NCBI GenBank assembly: GCA_965248265.1
Contig: CBDFJF010000001.1
Location: 768,001 to 832,000, forward strand
DNA: 64,000 nucleotides
Reading direction: 5' to 3'
Source: Candidatus Latescibacterota bacterium
GTDB taxonomy: Bacteria; Latescibacterota; UBA2968; UBA8231
This document shows positions 10,423 to 54,136 of this stretch, in pieces. Below the pieces are notes generated by a model, which saw only the letters and a list, made by a program, of their open reading frames with translations, did no database searches and was not told where the DNA came from. The number at the start of each line of letters is the position of its first letter. Positions within the stretch are counted from its first letter, which is position 1. Both the position numbers and the translations under genes were made by a program.

Positions 10423-10546
10423 ATATTCTCGCTGATTGACGTACGCCGTTGACGAGCATCTTGTGCGTTCTACAGACTGATGCTCGGCTTTGCCCGATAT
10501 TTTATGTTACGACCAAAAGTTCGTGTACCGACCCGTTTTTCTGAAA

Positions 10547-10582
10547 TTATGCGCACCTTTTGTTCACATATAGCAGTTATGA
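10547..10582 (+). other. attI-like site 1 (start of cassette array)
   Basis: GCGCAC..TGTTCACATATAGCA|GTTATGA; core GTT at 10576 has no upstream attC palindrome; resembles the site at 14034..14069. Confidence 0.5.
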
Positions 10583-10623
10583 GAAATGCCAAAACCAACG
10601 TCTCCCTTTTCAGGAGGATAGTC

Positions 10624-11196
10624 ATGACCGGCCTGCACTCATTCGATGACTTTGTCGACCTGCCGGACAAAGAAATCCAAACCGTAATAGAGAAGGCCGA
10701 GCAGAAGGACCTGACTGTTGCGCTATGGGCGGCCAGCGAAGAGACAAAAGAGAAATTCCTCCGGAACATGACTGGCCAATTGCTCACCTTCGTGAAAGAG
10801 GAACTGGCGCTCATGGAGCCCATAGCTCCCTGGTGCCGACCTGAATCAGATCACGATATACCAAGCCTCCATGCCTTTGATGATCTGCTCAAGTTCACGG
10901 CTAGGGAGATTCAGGCTGGATTGCGAGAATTGGATCAGAAGGAGGTCGTGATCGCCTTGAAGGGAGCCAGTGAGGAAGCAAAAGGAAAGATCTTGAGCAA
11001 TATGTCCGAGCGCGTAGTTACTTTCATAGAAGAAGAGTTAGAAGCTTTGGTATCGATAACTCCAGAGGAGATAGAGAGCGTTCAAAAAAAATACTTAGAA
11101 ACGACGGTAATAGAAGCAGAAAAGGCCGTAGAGAAGGTAAAGGGCGGCATTGTGACAGCGCGAGAGCGAATGATACAGATTTACCAATCAGAATAG
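10624..11196 (+). CDS. Tandem FliG C-terminal-domain protein (gene cassette)
   Basis: Two repeats: SFDDFVDLPDKEIQTVIEKAEQKDLTVALWAASEETKEKFLRNMT and AFDDLLKFTAREIQAGLRELDQKEVVIALKGASEEAKGKILSNMSERV; AGGAGG RBS. Confidence 0.8.
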   Translation: MTGLHSFDDFVDLPDKEIQTVIEKAEQKDLTVALWAASEETKEKFLRNMTGQLLTFVKEELALMEPIAPWCRPESDHDIPSLHAFDDLLKFTAREIQAGLRELDQKEVVIALKGASEEAKGKILSNMSERVVTFIEEELEALVSITPEEIESVQKKYLETTVIEAEKAVEKVKGGIVTARERMIQIYQSE

Positions 11197-11257
11197 TGAA
11201 CCACTCAGGTATGATAATTTTGAGGCCATATAAATGTTTCCACCCAGGTGGCACTTC

Positions 11258-11289
11258 TGATAACATTCGTGGACAGATAGGCGTTATGA
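11258..11289 (+). repeat. Internally deleted attC (32 bp)
   Basis: TGATAAC...GTTATGA; GGCACTTCTGATAAC is the near-inverse of GTTATGAGAAATGCC at 10576. Confidence 0.6.
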
Positions 11290-11326
11290 GAAATGCGAGA
11301 AAGGTCGTTCGCCCTGTTCGAGGTGG

Positions 11327-11758
11327 ATGAAGAACTTGATACGAATCCGACAAGCAGACGCGTCCGAACTTTCGACGAAATGCAGATCTCTGGTGCCTGA
11401 GATTCAACTGACCGCCAAGTATGAAGCCAGAATCTCAGGCAAGTCCGGGGAGAATTTCGCAGCTGAGGAGAACAGTGAGATCATCGGTTTTGCAATCGGC
11501 TATGGGGAAGGCGGCTTCTTCTACATCTATCTCTTCGGTGTTGAACCAAACCACAGGAAACAGGGCATCGGACAACTCTTGCTTGACCATGTCGAACAGT
11601 GGGCGAGAGATACCAACTTCGATGGTGTCGCTATCCAGTCACGAAACAAATTTCCTGACATGCTGCGTCTTTTGGTCAAGAACAAATACAAAATTGTCGC
11701 ATTCATTGACCGCGGGGACCACGATAGCAGCCCAATTCGCTTCGAAAAGCTCTGTTAA
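11327..11758 (+). CDS. GNAT N-acetyltransferase (gene cassette)
   Basis: GVEPNHRKQGIGQLLL acetyl-CoA motif; bounded by GTTATGAGAA / TTCTCATAAC. Confidence 0.88.
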   Translation: MKNLIRIRQADASELSTKCRSLVPEIQLTAKYEARISGKSGENFAAEENSEIIGFAIGYGEGGFFYIYLFGVEPNHRKQGIGQLLLDHVEQWARDTNFDGVAIQSRNKFPDMLRLLVKNKYKIVAFIDRGDHDSSPIRFEKLC

Positions 11759-11765
11759 GCACTTC

Positions 11766-11845
11766 TCATAACAGCACTGTTCGCGCTGCGGCGCCCTCGC
11801 GCCTTGGCCTTCGGCAACAGCTTCGCGGTTCGCAAACCGTTAGAG
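11766..11845 (+). repeat. attC site
   Basis: TCATAAC...GTTAGAG; shares CACTGTTCGCGCTGCG with 15311 and CTTGGCCTTCGGCA with 13854 and 15311. Confidence 0.8.
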
Positions 11846-11868
11846 GCCATGCGGCCAAAGCGAAGACC

Positions 11869-11897
11869 TTGCACTCTATACGCCATTGGCGTATAGT
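11869..11897 (+). promoter_or_regulatory. Sigma70 promoter overlapped by palindromic TA operator
   Basis: TTGCAC-17 bp-TATAGT; perfect palindrome CTATACGCCA-T-TGGCGTATAG at 11876..11896; ATG at 11904. Confidence 0.8.
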
Positions 11898-12064
11898 AGA
11901 TCTATGACCTTTGTTGAAACGCCCATCTTTTCAGAGGAAATTCTGACTCTACTACCCGACGATGGCTACCGAGCATTGCAACTGGCGATCCTGTTCCGAC
12001 CCGATCAGGACAGTGAATCGCCCCGGGGTTGCCGGAGGCTCCTTTTCTTGAGAGGATTGGAGTC

Positions 12065-13295
<1,231 letters not shown>

Positions 13296-13531
13296 CCAAG
13301 TCTCCGGACAACTCGGGGCGATTCACAGATCATCCCGCGCACAAGCGGCTTGCGCAAATTGAGATGGAATTTGCCGCGTGGCGGCAAACGCGGCGGTTTG
13401 CGTGTCATTTACTACTGGGACAAACCCGACGACACCGTTTACATGCTCTGGGTGTATCGCAAGAGTCGGCAGGAGGATCTAACGGCTCAGCAAGCCAGAC
13501 TGCTCAGCAAACTTGTGAAGGAGTACCTGTC

Positions 13532-13822
13532 ATGAAAGATCGCGACTTTGACAAACTTGTAGATAGCGTCAAACAAGCCGGTGCGATCAAGCGCGGCAAA
13601 CTCAAACCGGGCCGAACCATCCAGATGGACCCTGACGATGTCAGATTGATCCGCAAGAAACTGCAAAAGTCCCAATCTGAATTTGCCCTGATGATAGGGG
13701 TCAGTGTCTCTACTCTGCAAAACTGGGAGCAGGGACGCCGCAATCCCGAGGGCCCGGCTCGAGCCCTGCTCAAGATCGCTTCGGAGAATCCCGAAGCAGT
13801 GGCGCGATCCTTGAGTGCGTAG
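13532..13822 (+). CDS. HigA/NadS-like XRE HTH antitoxin
   Basis: SQSEFALMIGVSVSTLQNWEQGRRNPEGPARALL; ATGA overlap with the toxin stop. Confidence 0.9.
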   Translation: MKDRDFDKLVDSVKQAGAIKRGKLKPGRTIQMDPDDVRLIRKKLQKSQSEFALMIGVSVSTLQNWEQGRRNPEGPARALLKIASENPEAVARSLSA

Positions 13823-13853
13823 CGAGCCCACACCCCGCCCCTGACCACACAGC

Positions 13854-13954
13854 CTCTAACAAACGGTTTACACTGCGCCGCCTTCAGCGGCTTGGCCTTC
13901 GGCAATCTGCCTTCGCTGTGCTCGACAGATTCGTAAACCGTAGAAACGTTACCG
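13854..13954 (+). repeat. attC site closing the TA cassette
   Basis: GCCTCTAAC is the exact inverse of GTTAGAGGC at 11839; CGGTTTAC..GTAAACCG stem; ends GTTACCG. Confidence 0.85.
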
Positions 13955-13981
13955 CCCGTCAGATCCTATATCTGATAGTCG
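13953..13981 (+). repeat. 11-7-11 inverted-arm site, left subtype
   Basis: CGCCCGTCAGA-TCCTATA-TCTGATAGTCG. Confidence 0.8.
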
Positions 13982-14033
13982 GTCTGCCAGGTAAAACGAC
14001 CGAAAAGGACGCAAAATTGCCCGTCCGGTGTAT

Positions 14034-14069
14034 TTGAGCGAACATTGGTTCGCCTACAAATAGTTAGCC
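14034..14069 (+). other. attI-like site 2
   Basis: GCGAACATTGGTTCGCCTACAAATA|GTTAGCC; GTTAGCCAAAAGCG pairs with CGCCTTCGGCTAAC ending at 14918. Confidence 0.55.
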
Positions 14070-14135
14070 AAAAGCGCCCGCCACCCGCTCTGGACACGAT
14101 GGGACGCAGAGAAACTCACAATAGGAGGGCACACA

Positions 14136-14879
14136 ATGGAACGCATCTTCCCCAACTTATATCGCTTTACTGACGAGCCTTCTCACAAGGGGCGGATATA
14201 TTCGTACCTCATCGTGAGGAAGGGAGGAAATCTACTTCTGCCATGCTTAGGAGGCGGTGCTGTAAGTGAACACCTCAAGGATATCGAGCGCATTGGCGGG
14301 GTGGATACTCAGTTCGTCACGCACAATCATGACATCGACGGTGCCTTGCAGGAAGCCGTCTACGCCCGCTTCGGCGCCAAGCTCTGCTATCACCGAGCCG
14401 ACCACAAGAAAGTGGTGGCAAAGACCAAATGTCCGACAGCGGAATTCAGTGACGATGGCCTGCAGTTGGGCTCTGACTTCCAGGCACTCTACTTCCCGAG
14501 TTGTTCGGTCGGCTCCAGTGTCTACCACTGGCGATATCGGGGGAAACACTTCCTGTTCACGAGCCACGTCATCAACATGGTCGAAGGCGACTGGGAGGTC
14601 GGTCTCGACCTTAAGAAATCCCCACCTAGTCTGGCCCCCCAGTTCGCAGAAATCGCCAAGCTGCCTATCGACTACACCATGCCGAATGTGTGCAGATACG
14701 GGCAGGAGGAGTTCCATAGGTTCAACGATTATACAAGGAAGGCCTTCTCCACGGCGTTGAGAGCAAAGACCCGGCGAGCAAAGAGTAGGGTCGACGCACC
14801 GACTGGCAACATTGTGATCAAGGTAGTGGGGCCCAGACGGTTTCAGAGTCTTACGAAGGTGCGCGACGACAGGAGCTGA
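14136..14879 (+). CDS. Metallo-beta-lactamase-fold-like protein (gene cassette)
   Basis: YSYLIVRKGGNLL, QFVTHNHD, FLFTSH; degenerate metal motifs; GGAGG RBS. Confidence 0.65.
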   Translation: MERIFPNLYRFTDEPSHKGRIYSYLIVRKGGNLLLPCLGGGAVSEHLKDIERIGGVDTQFVTHNHDIDGALQEAVYARFGAKLCYHRADHKKVVAKTKCPTAEFSDDGLQLGSDFQALYFPSCSVGSSVYHWRYRGKHFLFTSHVINMVEGDWEVGLDLKKSPPSLAPQFAEIAKLPIDYTMPNVCRYGQEEFHRFNDYTRKAFSTALRAKTRRAKSRVDAPTGNIVIKVVGPRRFQSLTKVRDDRS

Positions 14880-14911
14880 AGGAGGAGGCTAGCGGCACCC
14901 GATTCGCCTTC

Positions 14912-14993
14912 GGCTAACACGTCCATGCCCGGCTTCGGGCTGCGCCCTTCGCCAAACCGCATTCGCGGTTCGGGCACGGCGAAATCGTTAGGC
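14912..14993 (+). repeat. attC site
   Basis: GGCTAAC...GTTAGGC, with CCATGCCCG / CGGGCACGG stem. Confidence 0.8.
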
Positions 14994-15021
14994 GCAAACA
15001 GAAAGGCTCTTTTTTTTGGAA

Positions 15022-15275
15022 ATGAGCATGGCAATCAGTCGAGCTGGAGCCTGAACCGCACTGGCGTCATTGCGACCTTTATTCTTTTCGCCCTCTGGGT
15101 TCTCTTCAACCAGGGCAAGATGACCTCGCTGGGGATATTTGGTGGCAAACCCGGCCACATGTTCACCTGCGCCACGTGGATAGACATTTTAGCAGGGCTA
15201 TTCGTTCACGGTGTAATTTTTTGCATCTGCGGGGAGCAGGTTTTGGCATTTCAATCATCGCGAACTGGATTCTGA
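15022..15275 (+). CDS. Small membrane protein in cassette (start uncertain, possibly frameshifted)
   Basis: Two hydrophobic stretches (VIATFILFALWVLF; ILAGLFVHGVIFCIC) between two attC sites. Confidence 0.4.
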
Positions 15276-15310
15276 GGCGGTTCAGGACGTAGTGCTGTGT
15301 ATCTGTCAGC

Positions 15311-15403
15311 GCCAAACAACACTGTTCGCGCTGCGCGCCTTTCGGCGCTTGGCCTTCGGCACCCTGGCATTCGCCAGGGTTGTGAGATGGAAGAACGTTA
15401 CGC
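15311..15403 (+). repeat. attC site (R'' core degenerate)
   Basis: GCCAAAC..GTTACGC; first ~50 bp closely resemble attC 11766. Confidence 0.75.
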
Positions 15404-15406
15404 GCC

Positions 15407-16174
15407 GTGCTATTCCCGGAGTATGAGGAACTGTCTATCTCGATGACCAAGACATCCAGGGATAGTCTCGAAGTTGTGCAAGTCCACCATGGCTACGCCC
15501 GGTGGTCTGAGATATATGATATGCAGGACAATATGCTGATCATTCTGGAGGAGCCGCTGGTACGAGCACTGCTGGGAAACGTCCGTGGCCTCTCGGTCGC
15601 AGACATTGGTTGTGGCACCGGTCGGCACACCGTCCACATGGCTGAAGCGGGCGCTCAGGTAACCGCGATCGACTTCTCTCAGGAGATGATGGCGCGAGCC
15701 ATCGAGAAGACGAAAGAGTGGGACATCAAATTCGTTACGCACGACCTGACTGATCGTTTGCCCTTCGCCGACAATTCATTCGATCGCGTCCTCTGCTGTC
15801 TCGTTCTGGAGCACATTGCTGATCTGCACGGAATGATTGCAGAAATGGCGAGGATCTGTCGACCTGGAGGCTTCGTCCTCATAGCCGAACTGCACCCAGC
15901 GATGTTCCTCCGCGGCCTCCAGGCCCGGTTCACGGATCCAACGACAGGTCAGAAAGTCAACGTCCAGAGCAACCGCCACCTGATCTCTGACTATGTCAAT
16001 GCAGCCGTGAGGGCTAATTTACAGATCGACCGCATTGAAGAGCATCTTGCAGACGAACCCCTATTGGAGAAGTCGCCGAGAGCGAAGGAATACTGGAGCG
16101 CGTTCCGAGAGGACTTTGATCTGGGCTGGCCGATGCTACTGCTGGTGAAGTTGGGTAAACCATCACGCGCATGA
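15407..16174 (+). CDS. Class I SAM-dependent methyltransferase (gene cassette)
   Basis: VADIGCGTGRH, LPFADNSFDRV, ARICRPGG; start may be 15443. Confidence 0.92.
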   Translation: MLFPEYEELSISMTKTSRDSLEVVQVHHGYARWSEIYDMQDNMLIILEEPLVRALLGNVRGLSVADIGCGTGRHTVHMAEAGAQVTAIDFSQEMMARAIEKTKEWDIKFVTHDLTDRLPFADNSFDRVLCCLVLEHIADLHGMIAEMARICRPGGFVLIAELHPAMFLRGLQARFTDPTTGQKVNVQSNRHLISDYVNAAVRANLQIDRIEEHLADEPLLEKSPRAKEYWSAFREDFDLGWPMLLLVKLGKPSRA

Positions 16175-16254
16175 CACAACCGTGTGCAACTCCGGTCGCT
16201 ACGCTCCCCCGTCCCAACCCGGCTGCGGTAGGTTTTCACACGGCTGAACAATGG

Positions 16255-16283
16255 TGACCTGCTGATCCTATGTCTGATGGTCA
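16255..16283 (+). repeat. 11-7-11 inverted-arm site, right subtype
   Basis: TGACCTGCTGA-TCCTATG-TCTGATGGTCA; 27/29 identical to 34611..34639. Confidence 0.8.
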
Positions 16284-16471
16284 TTTTCGAATGACAGCCG
16301 CATTTGCGAACTCAAAGCAAGTATTTCCACGAGAATGCGCTCATCAAGGAGCCCGGGACTCGCGGGCTGGTGGTGCCTCCCGGCGAGTGTGGCAGACAGG
16401 CCCATGGGAACAAATCACTCATCGTGGGCTGGACAGCGCGGGACTACCTGCGGCTTTCTGCAAATGTCTGC

Positions 16472-17224
16472 CTAGAACCTTTCTTGCAGCAGCCGCGTGA
16501 TCGCGTTCGGCTTGCTGTAGTACGCACGTGTTGCAGCATCTGGATGTGCCCAGAGCCGCTTGGGAACGATCGTGTGGTTACTTATCGGCGGGCTCGAGGC
16601 ACGACCGCAATAGATGTGGACAGTGCGGCGCTCGACGTCACTGCGGCGAACGTTGCCCCCGTGGAACATGCCCGCGTTGAACACAACTGCCGTCCCACGT
16701 GGACCCTCGATATGGTGGGCCGCATCCAGCTCATAGTGCGCCAGCGGTGCCAGCTCGTCGCCGACAGCTGAGCCCGGCAGTACACTGAAGGTGTGCGTCG
16801 ACTCATCGACGTCGCTCAGGTAAAACGCGACGGATACGTAGTGAGAGGCAAAGGCTGGCGGTGATCCCAGCTCCGGCCAGCCATTTCCGTCTCGGTGCCA
16901 GTGGCAGTATGGCTTGCCGGCGTAGGGCTTGCGAATGTGTACCGTATGCTCTTCGGCGCGTAGGTGGGATCCGAGAATACCCTCGAGCAGTGGCATCAGA
17001 GTCGGCGGTCTCATTGTGACGTCCATCTCCTTGTATGCCAGCAGCGCGTGCGCGTTGAGGATTACGTGGCCGTCTTCCCGTTCGATCCAGAACGGCGTTT
17101 CGGCCGCCAGGTCGCGATCGATGGCAGCGTTGATGGCATCGACTTCCTCGACGCTCAAAGTGTCCAGCACAACAACGTAACCGAACTTGCGGTAGGTATA
17201 GAGCTGTTCCTGTGTGGATGTCAT
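16472..17224 (-). CDS. Phytanoyl-CoA dioxygenase (PhyH) family Fe(II)/2OG oxygenase
   Basis: YRKFGYVVV, WHRD, SVLPGS, MFHGG..R motifs. Confidence 0.88.
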   Translation of the reverse strand: MTSTQEQLYTYRKFGYVVVLDTLSVEEVDAINAAIDRDLAAETPFWIEREDGHVILNAHALLAYKEMDVTMRPPTLMPLLEGILGSHLRAEEHTVHIRKPYAGKPYCHWHRDGNGWPELGSPPAFASHYVSVAFYLSDVDESTHTFSVLPGSAVGDELAPLAHYELDAAHHIEGPRGTAVVFNAGMFHGGNVRRSDVERRTVHIYCGRASSPPISNHTIVPKRLWAHPDAATRAYYSKPNAITRLLQERF

Positions 17225-34523: not shown

Positions 34524-34610
34524 CCCGTATCCGGTTCGCATCGCATACTGCGATATTCTTCTAGCGGGTACGCAGTCCCAACCGCTGCGCGGGTTTATGA
34601 GAGCGAGTGA

Positions 34611-34639
34611 TGACCTGCGGATCCTATGTCTGATGTTCA
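34611..34639 (+). repeat. 11-7-11 inverted-arm site, right subtype
   Basis: TGACCTGCGGA-TCCTATG-TCTGATGTTCA. Confidence 0.8.
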
Positions 34640-34689
34640 CATGCGGTCAAGGAGACATTGATCGCAACTGCAGCACTGTGTTCTTATCT

Positions 34690-51532: not shown

Positions 51533-51636
51533 TCGGCTCACCGCGCCGACGTCACCGCGAGTCGCGTGTACGGAATGTCCCTCGCTTGTGCCGGGACCTG
51601 CGCGTCGTGATAATGAGCGTGACAGTCCGGCGGCTC

Positions 51637-51665
51637 CGCCCGTCAGTTCCTATATCTGACGGGCG
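51637..51665 (+). repeat. 11-7-11 inverted-arm site, left subtype
   Basis: CGCCCGTCAGT-TCCTATA-TCTGACGGGCG (arms 10/11 complementary); 25/29 identical to 13953. Confidence 0.85.
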
Positions 51666-51699
51666 TCCCGGCAAGCACAACCTACCAGTCGAGGGATCA

Positions 51700-51943
51700 G
51701 TGCTCAAAGTCCGCGCAGCCACTGGTGATGACGCGGTTACTATCTCTGCGTTGAACCATGAATCGCTCGCATCAACGGATGGGAATCGGCACGGCACTCT
51801 TTGACAGCGTAAAAGACTGGGCAAATGAGCTGGACATCAAGTGCTTAGGACTGGATGTGTGGTCTTTCAACCAAGACGCGATCGCTTTCTATAAGGACAT
51901 GGGGTTTGAGATAGCCGAGCACACCATGTCGATGGATTTGTGA
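51700..51943 (+). pseudogene. GNAT acetyltransferase with internal deletion/frameshift
   Basis: VLKVRAATGDDAVTISALNHE joined out of frame to HQRMGIGTALF..LDVWSFNQDAIAFYKDMGF. Confidence 0.8.
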
Positions 51944-51970
51944 CCAGCTTCACTGACTCAAGCCCACAAC

Positions 51971-51999
51971 CGATCATCGCATCCTATGTCTGATGGTCG
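51971..51999 (+). repeat. 11-7-11 inverted-arm site, right subtype
   Basis: CGATCATCGCA-TCCTATG-TCTGATGGTCG. Confidence 0.8.
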
Positions 52000-52129
52000 C
52001 CCACGATGATTATCGAAACGACTGACTGAAGGCGCCCCAAACCATCGCGGCACAGCACAGTGCGAGCCGTTCAATTGCGCGTTCTGTGGTAATCGCGTTC
52101 CCGTGTTCCATCATCATTACTAAGCTGCC

Positions 52130-54136
52130 ATGAACAAACCGCCCACCGAGCTTCCTACCCAGTCACCGAGGGCCGCCGAGGATTCATCAGCCGGCGGACT
52201 GGGGCGCATTACCATCCGTTCGGTGGTTACCGGGGCCCTGCTGTCCCTCATCATCAGCGTCGGTTTCACCTACGCGCGCGTGGCTCTGGGCAAGGGCAGC
52301 ATGTCTTCTGACTACATCACCCCGGGAGCCATCTGCATTCTCTTCGCCGTCATGGCACTCGTAAACCCCTGTATTAAGCTCGTGCGTCGCAGCTGGGGGT
52401 TCGACCGCGCCGAGCTCATCGTCATCTACATCATGCTCATCATCGCCTCGACGATTCCCACGGTGGGGTTCTCCGGACTCTTCGTAGGCACCTTGCCGGG
52501 TGTCTACTACTTCGCGACGCCGGAGAACAACTGGGCCGAGGTCCTGCATCCGCTCGTCAAGAGCTGGATGGTGCCCCAGGATGCCGATGCTATCAAGGAT
52601 TTCTACGAGGGGTTGCCCGCCGGCGCCTCGGTGCCGTGGGGGGCGTGGCTAGGACCATTGTCCGTTTGGACCAGCTTCATCATCGCCATCTATCTGATGA
52701 TGATCGCGGCAATGGTGCTGGTGCGCCGTCAGTGGGTCGAACGCGAACGACTGGCCTTTCCGCTGGTGCAACTGCCGCTCGATATGACGGAAACCGGGCA
52801 CGTCCGCGATCGGGTGAGCCCCTTCCTCAAGAATCCGGTGATGTGGGCGGGCTTTGTCGTTCCATTCTGCCTGCTCAGCGCCAGGGGATTACACTTCTAC
52901 TTTCCGGCCGTGCCGGAACCGGATTTCTACTCCGTCGCAAGGATGTTTAACAACACCACGGGATTGGTGTTCAACCTCAGCTTCACCGTCATCGGCTTCG
53001 CTTACCTGCTGAGTTTGCAGATCGCCGTCGGCTTCTGGTTCTTCCACCTGGTGACCAAGTTCTTCATGGGGTGGCAGATGATGACGGGATACCGGCTGCA
53101 GGGGGAGATCGAGTCCGGTATGGAGGGCACTCTCTTGGTCGCCTTCGTGACCACCGGCGCCATGATCGTCTTCGTCGTCTTCGGACTGTGGACGAGCCGC
53201 GGCCATCTGCGCGCGATCTGGCGAAAAGTAGTAACGGATGAGGGAGTCGACGACACCGATGAGATCCTCTCCTACCGGGCGGCGGTAGGAATCCTCCTCG
53301 TGTGCGGAGCCTACACAACCGTATGGCTGCACCTGTCGGGTCTGCCCCTGGCGATCGCCGTCGCCTTCCTGCTGCTGGCCTTCGCCATCTTCGTCTTCAT
53401 GGCTCGATTCGTCGCAGAGGGCGGACTCGGCTTCATGATGCCGCCGATGCCGGCTCAGCCCCTCATCATCAACTTCGCCGGCACGTCTGCTGTTACGGAT
53501 GCGGGCATTTTCAGCCTCGCACTGAGCTTCTCGTGGGCGGGTGATATCCGCATCCTGCTCATGGCCTCGGCCATCAATGCGATGAGGATGGCCCAGGGAG
53601 TGGGCTTGCTGCGGCGACCCCTGTTCTGGATCATCCTGCTGGCCATCATCACGAGTCTGGTGAGTTCGCTGGCGCTCCTCATCTGGGCCGCTTACGAGCA
53701 CGGAGGGGTCAATCTCGAACCCGGGTTCTTTTCTGGCGGCGCCAGCAACTTTGCCAGCTACAAGATCAGCAACCCGGTCTCGTTCGCGACCACGCCCGAT
53801 ATCATCTGGCCGCGGGCGCTGTGGACGGCGGTAGGCGGAGCCGTCATGGGAGGTCTGATCTCGCTGCGCCATCACTTTCTGTGGTGGCCGCTGCATCCGC
53901 TCGGATTCGTCGTGAGTGCGAGCACCATCAGCAGTCAGGCCTGGTTCAGCATCTTCATCGGCTCCCTCGTCAAAGCCATCGTGCTCAAATACGGCGGGGC
54001 CAAGCTCTACCACTCGGCACGGCCGTTCTTCCTGGGCCTGATCCTGGGCCAGATCGTCTGCGCCGGCGTCTGGCTCATCATCGACCTGATCGCCGGGGGC
54101 ACCGGCAACCGGGTAGCGGTGTTCGTGCAACGATGA
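52130..54136 (+). CDS. Polytopic membrane protein, DUF6785/DUF6784-like (putative transporter)
   Basis: YFATPENNW, RRQWVERERLAFPLVQLP, WWPLHPLG, KYGG..RPFFLGLILG. Confidence 0.8.
   Translation: MNKPPTELPTQSPRAAEDSSAGGLGRITIRSVVTGALLSLIISVGFTYARVALGKGSMSSDYITPGAICILFAVMALVNPCIKLVRRSWGFDRAELIVIYIMLIIASTIPTVGFSGLFVGTLPGVYYFATPENNWAEVLHPLVKSWMVPQDADAIKDFYEGLPAGASVPWGAWLGPLSVWTSFIIAIYLMMIAAMVLVRRQWVERERLAFPLVQLPLDMTETGHVRDRVSPFLKNPVMWAGFVVPFCLLSARGLHFYFPAVPEPDFYSVARMFNNTTGLVFNLSFTVIGFAYLLSLQIAVGFWFFHLVTKFFMGWQMMTGYRLQGEIESGMEGTLLVAFVTTGAMIVFVVFGLWTSRGHLRAIWRKVVTDEGVDDTDEILSYRAAVGILLVCGAYTTVWLHLSGLPLAIAVAFLLLAFAIFVFMARFVAEGGLGFMMPPMPAQPLIINFAGTSAVTDAGIFSLALSFSWAGDIRILLMASAINAMRMAQGVGLLRRPLFWIILLAIITSLVSSLALLIWAAYEHGGVNLEPGFFSGGASNFASYKISNPVSFATTPDIIWPRALWTAVGGAVMGGLISLRHHFLWWPLHPLGFVVSASTISSQAWFSIFIGSLVKAIVLKYGGAKLYHSARPFFLGLILGQIVCAGVWLIIDLIAGGTGNRVAVFVQR

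Follow-up and report, generated by a model that had tools for sequence, protein, structure and literature searches.

The stretch analyzed here, referred to as the window, comprises 64,000 nucleotides (nt) of a Candidatus Latescibacterota genome (GenBank assembly GCA_965248265.1; C1:768001-832000, C1 being contig CBDFJF010000001.1), the genome as a whole measuring 7.32 Mb on contigs C1 and C2. Within the window, a 2.3-kb block made of an attI site and three gene cassettes is bounded by two short sites in direct orientation, each with ~11-bp inverted arms around a 7-9-bp center (11-7-11 sites; L1 on the left, R1 on the right). The block is in tandem behind a second integrase-less array. Our tentative explanation, which we put at somewhat short of an even chance, is that the block was inserted as a unit into a site that ended the upstream array, with L1 and R1 as the resulting junctions.

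Coordinates without a contig name are window positions. From left to right, the region holds an attI-bearing head (b0, 10466-10583), a FliG_C-like cassette, a GNAT cassette, a toxin-antitoxin (TA) cassette with an IS3 element, L1, a second head (b), three cassettes and R1, followed by ordinary genes on both strands. Reading 13000-17200 bore out the layout of the first-pass annotation, and its interpretation is supported in part. A GTTAGCC hairpin and three co-oriented open reading frames (ORFs) lie between L1 and R1, as listed here.

13952-13982, plus strand: L1, left site; CCGCCCGTCAG (13952-13962), ATCCTATAT (13963-13971), CTGATAGTCGG (13972-13982); site profile E 3.5e-7
13983-14069, plus strand: head b (type 2); conserved spacer with AAACGACCGAAAAGGACGC, attI palindrome 14031-14062, core GTTAGCC 14063-14069
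14065-14987, plus strand: cassette 1; ORF 14136-14879 (247 aa); attC 14905-14993, R' GTTAGGC 14987-14993, E 2.4e-4
14988-15397, plus strand: cassette 2; small hydrophobic ORF with in-frame Met at 15121 and stop at 15275; attC 15304-15403, R' GTTACGC 15397-15403, E 2.6e-20
15398-16253, plus strand: cassette 3; class I SAM methyltransferase 15407-16174 (Pfam Methyltransf_11, 1.1e-27); atypical attC-like remnant 16173-16253
16253-16284, plus strand: R1, right site; GGTGACCTGCTG (16253-16264), ATCCTATGT (16265-16273), CTGATGGTCAT (16274-16284); site profile E 1.7e-6

The block as an integron fragment

Identification of the block as an integron fragment without its integrase, as proposed in the first-pass annotation, is supported, with the attI assigned by homology. 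Sites of attC type with R''...R' (GTTRRRY) bound the co-oriented ORFs, and attI lies beside the first cassette. The first-pass annotation had placed the attI-like site ~55 bp after the left site; its palindrome and core were located 48 nt and 80 nt 3' of L1, respectively, and it is homologous to the attI beside the genome's IntI-like gene (GCGAAC-N4/5-GTTCGC-N-ACAA-NN-GTTAG). The attI hairpin of head b folds better than shuffled sequences (z -3.4). Among the 63 window ORFs scanned with Pfam, Phage_integrase was absent, and the closest PF00589 matches are at C1:703299 and C1:685751. The block thus has at least two attC and no intI within the locus, and no intI adjoins its attI as in a complete integron.

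An attC profile built from 12 attC of this genome (nhmmer) returned 28 sites in the genome and four in the window (11759-11850, 13848-13964, 14905-15004 and 15304-15410). The predicted series of three cassettes and a right site therefore stands in respect of two canonical attC, three ORFs and R1, while the third cassette ends in an atypical remnant only. The attC profile does not match this remnant, which has a 10-bp closing stem, shows no better fold than shuffles and runs up to R1, its last bases being ...GAACAATG. The 247-aa protein of cassette 1 matched no Pfam or NCBIfam family; a paralogue of the cassette (C1:1031093-1031551, 65.6% nucleotide identity) adjoins another attC.

The 11-7-11 site family

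Within the window, a 19-nt site pattern (<=3 mismatches) matched five times against 0.02 expected, and none of 100 shuffled sequences reached five. A whole-genome regular expression search (<=2 mismatches) gave 39 matches, 12 of which have inverted arms and served as the profile seed. The profile located 15 copies genome-wide, consisting of the 12 seeds (refound by construction) and sites at 743110, 963721 (degenerate, E 0.7) and 1107698; two further matches with E above 5 were taken as noise. All 15 sites are on the plus strand of C1 and thus in direct orientation, 0.3 to 123 kb apart, between 664722 and 1107734, i.e., within 443 kb of the 7.32 Mb (6% of the genome). Apart from L1 and R1, the window contains three:

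34608-34645, plus strand: S5, solitary site 3' of a histidine-kinase gene; site profile E 8.4e-7
51636-51671, plus strand: L2, left end of a 0.33-kb mini-module; left arm CCGCCCGTCAG as in L1
51969-52007, plus strand: R2, right end of the mini-module; right arm CTGATGGTC as in R1

The mini-module L2-R2 (51636-52007) holds a decayed GNAT gene with an internal deletion. A site followed by a GNAT start is also found at C1:1107698-1107840, beside a frameshifted integrase gene. R1 shares 90.6% identity over 32 nt with S5; TCCCAACC, an apparent upstream motif common to these two sites, did not extend into longer homology and was dropped.

Site geometry is that of tyrosine-recombinase core sites, and one better-kept arm opposite an arm that falls into classes is a feature of Xer-type sites. 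The family has this Xer/dif core shape, with ~11-bp inverted arms, a short center and one arm better conserved. Over the 15 sites, the best-kept parts are the center ATCCTATRT and the right arm CTGAYGGKCGG. Left arms form three classes: S1, L1 and L2 have CCGCCCGTCAG; S2b and S8 have TGACCGTCRG, which in S12 takes the form CGACCGTCGC; and R1 and S5 have TGACCTGCKG, which in S10 takes the form TGTCCTGCGG. The third class pairs poorly with its right arm, which favors sequence-specific arm recognition over a mere hairpin. The cumulative GC-skew extremes are at ~2.9 Mb on C1 and ~3.45 Mb on C2, so that the sites, at C1 0.66-1.11 Mb, are not at the replication terminus, the place of a chromosomal dif or IMEX array.

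Indirect signs of possible crossover at the sites

The partner to which L1 is homologous switches within the site. Over 25 nt (-11 to +14), L1 and S1 are identical, with no relation beyond, and from its center rightward L1 shares 83% identity over 82 nt with the degenerate site of head d, the left arms of these two being different. A similar relation links L2 and S13 (C1:1107711), which have ~130 nt of right flank in common, comprising the center, right arm and first GNAT codons, and differ in their left arms. The outer arms of L1-R1 and L2-R2 are equal, the left one in 11 of 11 positions (CCGCCCGTCAG, also in S1) and the right one in 9 of 9 (CTGATGGTC). Two insertions into like target sites would give such equal outer arms.

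A site marks the end of four integrase-less arrays, namely S1 for array a, L1 for array b0, R1 for array b (the block) and S8 for array c. The last gene of array a, GrpB, is followed by S1 in place of the expected attC, and one attC of array c is cut mid-way by S8. Because attC sequence makes up well under 1% of the region, the association of array ends with sites is not due to chance. At the other end of an array, an 11-7-11 site forms the left edge of an attI head in two cases, b and d. We also observed that two attC 5' halves (C1:840940-841000 and C1:860676-860732) stop at the same point, after ...TCGGCMAMC, each directly preceding a site (S8) or the site-like start of head c.

Integrase-less attI heads

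Seven heads are present in the genome: head e, with the IntI-like gene, and six without it (a, b0, c and f of type 1, b and d of type 2). A GAAACGACCRAA insertion is common to all six integrase-less heads and is missing in head e and in the heads of related genomes, which indicates that the six represent one lineage that multiplied. The attI form of window 14038-14069 was found by regular expression also at C1:661793, C1:841085 and C1:1755297, and further copies are at C1:963808 (truncated), C2:3895768 and window 10553-10583, a copy that the first-pass annotation lacks. Head b shares 82.9% identity over 82 nt with C1:963730-963811. Head b0 was matched by the attI of the IntI-linked integron (at C1:778546-778579) and is ~92% like head f on C2, as judged by eye. 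The two types differ at the left edge. Type-2 heads begin with an 11-7-11 site, which is complete in b (L1 itself) and degenerate in d; type-1 heads start with CTACAG-N-CTGATGCTCGG, the right part of which equals the family right arm at 10 of 11 positions. Over this site-like stretch, the two types are equal in length.

Of 75 other genomes of the family, 21 contain heads like e, in many cases several and up to eight each. Eleven such loci (L046-L056) were fetched from relatives G129, G010, G018, G002, G150, G153, G015, G155, G143, G118 and G135; three have an IntI-like gene within 1.5 kb (one of them frameshifted) and eight do not. Their left truncation points differ, and attC-like sequence precedes one head (L048). 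Heads with attI and no integrase are thus a trait of the family, and it is only in this genome that 11-7-11 sites have so far been found at their edges.

Proposed origin of the block

The explanation that we tentatively prefer runs as follows. L1 and R1 would be attL/attR-like junctions of a system with Xer/tyrosine-recombinase geometry (~11-bp inverted arms, asymmetric 7-9-bp center), distinct from the attI/attC chemistry of the integron itself. Between them, an integrase-less head, carrying the conserved attI platform, and three cassettes would have come in together as a unit, through recombination with an 11-7-11 site that was already present. This target would have ended the upstream integrase-less array (head b0, FliG_C-like, GNAT, TA). 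The single IntI-like enzyme at C1:1.755 Mb may act in trans on the cassettes within such modules.

The first-pass annotation had placed the start of the left site at the last two bases of the GTTACCG core of the TA-cassette attC, and L1, from 13952, does overlap the last bases of this R' core (13948-13954). Landing at the attC itself, which had been concluded from this position, gives way to landing in an 11-7-11 site already ending the array that starts with head 10466-10583. Mobilization by a second recombination system, also part of that annotation, finds indirect support in the junction-like sites, the partner switch in L1 and the outer arms equal to those of L2-R2; neither a second copy of the block nor an intact recombinase tied to the sites was found in the genome.

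Several results weigh against insertion of the block as a unit. A genome search matched the 2.3-kb block only to itself, apart from a second copy of the 82-nt head at C1:963730. The sites were detected in a single genome, which gives no comparative support. The inner arms of L1-R1 and L2-R2 are unlike each other, and array d does not end at a site. R1 and S8 are complete yet abut attC broken at different points (after the R' G at R1; mid-attC at S8), which crossover inside a site does not by itself explain, and no orphan 3' half turned up for the attC that S8 interrupts. Type-1 heads (a, b0, c and f) carry only the site-like CAG-N-CTGATGCTCGG, the 8-nt center being missing, and an ungapped alignment of type 1 with type 2 over the site-like stretch agrees at ~7 of 31 positions by eye, no better than chance. 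The only integrase gene adjoining a site is a pseudogene (at S13). In addition, by our choice of ORFs, plus-strand genes lie upstream of 13 of the 15 sites and downstream of 12, which would also suit a gene-boundary or regulatory role.

Public sequencing data were represented by contigs of four out of ten runs, X7 (likely the source organism) and three marine metagenomes. Source contigs span both L1 (13922-14376) and R1 (16071-16900). Neither a joint of ~13970 to 16273 nor a circle joint was present in the contigs of the four runs, a result that is uninformative either way because contigs cannot show rare forms.

A wider proposal, which we regard as speculative and rather doubtful, is that the integron platform is itself the cassette of a higher-order system. 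Xer-type sites would then package integrase-less heads and arrays as excisable, tandem-stacking modules, with cassettes supplied in trans by one IntI-like enzyme lacking the IntI-specific domain, so that two site-specific systems would be nested.

Alternative explanations

It is possible, but in our estimate unlikely, that the sites are relics of tandem accretion, in which islands integrated serially at one att site into a 443-kb pile that later suffered deletions, the block never having moved alone (CIME-like). L1 and R1 would then be surviving att copies that happen to bracket the remnant of an integron island, which we likewise doubt. The co-orientation and spacing (0.3 to 123 kb) of all 15 sites would fit accretion, as would the decayed integrase gene abutting the last site, S13, the cumulative GC skew, which is flat over C1 0.2-1.1 Mb and unlike that of the rest of the replichore, and the insertion sequence (IS) elements, group II intron copies and Y2 transposase stumps of the region. 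However, the genome holds no intact integrase of the pseudogene's kind, and many ordinary-looking genes on both strands lie between the sites. The matching outer and unlike inner arms of the mini-modules also argue for separate insertions rather than random deletion remnants.

The strand bias of neighboring genes would also be accounted for if the sites, rather than being crossover sites, bound a protein or formed hairpins where genes meet, for instance as an operator, as an element at 3' ends or as a palindrome native to the integron platform. Their placement at array edges would then follow from where such elements lie. An imperfect palindrome (TCGC, ~10 nt, GCGA) does occupy the place of head b's left site in the IntI-linked head e and in relatives' heads, and the L1 hairpin folds better than shuffles (z -3.0). 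R1, however, folds weakly (z -1.9), and no Rfam family matched the sites, the only Rfam match being the ALIL pseudoknot of the IS3 element. Confinement of all 15 sites to one strand and 6% of the genome would be odd for a regulon; moreover, it is the asymmetric center that is best kept, and flank homology switches partner inside the site. We consider a boundary element quite unlikely on these grounds.

It is highly improbable that the sites are ends or origins of an IS91/ISCR-like (HUH) rolling-circle element that captured integron DNA, as ISCR1 did in complex class 1 integrons: Y2 transposase stumps are present at C1:667867-668310 and C1:971487-971663, an IS91-like copy on C2 ends in GGTCCTATACGT with TCCTATA in common with the site center, and complete sites abut array DNA broken at variable points, but the likeness covers ~7 nt only, S1 is wrongly oriented to the nearby stump, distances range from 2.8 to 13 kb, C2 carries all four intact Y2 genes with none in or adjoining the block, no Y1 transposase was found in the genome (0 matches), and the left-arm class CCTGCKG, which is conserved and does not pair, speaks for sequence-specific binding of the arm over a hairpin. 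IS91-family ends bear subterminal palindromes, in accord with such an origin, and insert beside GTTC/CTTG (PMC13181058); no GTTC/CTTG is found beside the sites.

Candidate recombinases

The genome's only IntI-like gene is at C1:1754240-1755055, minus strand (ORF C1:1754213-1755118), beside an attI (GCGAACCTTTTGTTCGCATACAAGCAGTTAGAG) and an attC array that extends to ~C1:1761800. Its protein scored 239.6 bits against TIGR02249 (cut-off 265), matching only model positions 1-177 and 233-315. The best PDB match is VchIntIA (2a3v; E 2.6e-47), in which 61 residues stand opposite 19 of the query. Approximately 42 residues are thus missing at the place of the IntI-specific domain, and the additional domain that IntI has between the catalytic patches is not present.

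Two Xer-like genes lie inside the site-bearing region (C1:685700-686638 and C1:703263-704105), between S1 and S2 and not adjoining a site. Their best NCBIfam matches are XerA/XerC/XerD, all below cut-off, and their products are predicted candidates for Xer-type binding only. They are part of two paralogous operons (C1:685.7-689.8 kb and 703.3-704.5 kb), each pairing an Xer-like tyrosine recombinase with a small ParB-HTH protein. The operon at 703.3 kb faces a plus-strand run of small cassette-like genes (PRTase, HIT, GNAT, APH-like), in which the attC profile found no attC; none of the inverted repeats near either operon is site-like. The frameshifted integrase gene is ~190 nt from S13, and its closest paralogue is 35% identical. 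Of other enzyme families, IS110 has 10 genome matches, all on C2, and a resolvase is represented by one fragment (C1:874672) that does not adjoin a site.

Comparison with known systems

Among known systems, pdif modules, CIME/accretion arrays and CALINs come closest, and the block departs from every one of them in a feature that was examined. pdif modules are located on plasmids and have inverted XerC-XerD / XerD-XerC site order with a 6-bp spacer. The pdif (Xer) modules of Acinetobacter plasmids are similar to the block in that they are discrete gene modules lying between short sites of Xer type, each with 11-bp arms and a brief spacer, with a cargo that includes toxin-antitoxin and accessory genes, and in both systems mobility has been deduced from mosaic contexts (PMC7399989). 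The block differs from pdif modules in its direct repeats, chromosomal location, 7-9-bp center and cargo of integron head and array, and no identical module was seen in two contexts here.

A CALIN, in IntegronFinder terms, is a cluster of attC sites without an integron integrase. The block resembles one in having at least two attC, co-oriented cassettes and no intI near. Unlike a CALIN, it retains an attI head, of which the genome has six integrase-less copies; a second kind of site forms the head's left edge in two of these, and four arrays end at such sites. In CIMEs and accretion, a segment between direct att repeats, without a recombinase of its own, stands in tandem with other site-bounded segments. 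The block shares the direct att-like repeats, the want of its own recombinase and the tandem arrangement, and differs in its size of only 2.3 kb and its integron-platform content; nor was an intact partner element found whose integrase would match. In complex class 1 integrons with ISCR1, integron parts are likewise tied to a second mobilizing system, and IS91-family stumps are nearby here; unlike in those integrons, there is no oriIS/terIS and no Y2 gene beside the block, and the sites have two-armed recombinase geometry.

According to a preprint, integrase-less cassette clusters are common and their origin is debated among decay, transposon rearrangement and attG insertion, the last being a route by which IntI inserts cassettes outside attI, at double-stranded dif-like targets with a GWT consensus (10.1101/2022.09.11.507474). 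As described there, the attG route would account for integrase-less cassettes outside attI; the block, unlike its products, has the R1 junction G|GT, not GWT, and brings its own attI head (10.1101/2022.09.11.507474). No description of integron heads bounded by Xer-type sites was found in the limited full-text collection searched. In this genome, attI heads without intI have multiplied, and array edges coincide with a second kind of recombination-type site. Should the sites be active, they would offer a means of moving entire arrays in place of single cassettes, as well as a simple test system made up of two sites and a few candidate recombinases.

Searches in other genomes

The site pattern was absent from all 40 relatives searched. 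Chance matches were discarded elsewhere. One of 167 genomes of a phylum sample matched inside a coding region without a left arm. Seven loci in genome_contigs had no matching left arm, with one partial case ~120 nt from an IS110 transposase gene judged to be chance, and three loci in metagenome_contigs had no right arm. Around the PhyH gene to the right of R1, no synteny was detected with the nearest genus having a complete genome.

The upstream array and other features

The array between head b0 and L1 includes the following features.

10466-10583, plus strand: head b0 (type 1), which starts the array; begins CTACAG-A-CTGATGCTCGG and ends with the attI palindrome and a GTTATGA core
11759-11850, plus strand: attC of the GNAT cassette; nhmmer E 2.3e-20; GNAT ORF 11327-11758 (Pfam Acetyltransf_1)
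11843-13951, plus strand: TA cassette, RelE-like/HTH, split by IS3; Pfam RelE, HTH_3, rve
12014-13324, in the TA cassette: IS3-family element; 4-bp ACAG duplication, ALIL frameshift pseudoknot 12343-12459
13848-13954, plus strand: attC of the TA cassette; R' GTTACCG 13948-13954; nhmmer E 1.6e-20; identical copy at C1:1756016-1756132

The TA cassette and the cassette that opens the IntI-linked integron share 98.3% and 99.7% identity, the two copies differing by the 1311-bp IS3 present in the window. Their identity stops at GTTA (13951), which is the integron crossover point (G|TT), and such near-identical cassettes in two arrays suggest recent cassette traffic of IntI type. The bottom strand of the TA attC folds better than shuffles (z -2.2). 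In one of the seawater metagenomes (run X2), the TA cassette lacks the IS and follows a different attC, on a contig that departs from the window after GTTAC (13952); the cassette thus circulates in other arrays. Marine samples X1 and X3 also contain near-identical cassettes.

The IS3 element disrupts the RelE-like toxin gene. It is only 89-93% identical to the 13 other copies in the genome and thus does not represent a recent local jump. Because it sits 5' of L1, in the upstream array and outside the 2.3-kb block, the nesting "IS in cassette, cassettes in module" described in the first-pass annotation does not apply to the block. Within 10466-11300, which covers head b0 and the FliG_C-domain cassette behind it, this cassette has an atypical attC at ~11197-11290 that was missed by the attC profile, and GTTATGAGAAATGC is repeated at both of its boundaries.

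Array d (C1:963.8-970.5 kb) lies behind the degenerate site. It includes genes for a zeta-toxin-like protein and for a serine hydrolase of the beta-lactamase family with DUF3471, as well as a HigB/HTH pair and an insertion of the IS481 family. The attI palindrome of this array is truncated, and an attC-like 3' end (GAAACGTTAAGT) is joined to it. Copies of a reverse-transcriptase element (RVT_1, L009:16041-17369), probably a group II intron, are found at C1:648624, 656356, 697286 and 726436, in and around the site-bearing region. Two distantly paralogous DUF6785/DUF6784 membrane-protein genes (32% identity; window 52130-54136 and L011:7824-9830) have their starts 130-165 nt away from R2 and S9, respectively, and the side of the site on which the gene lies is opposite in the two cases.

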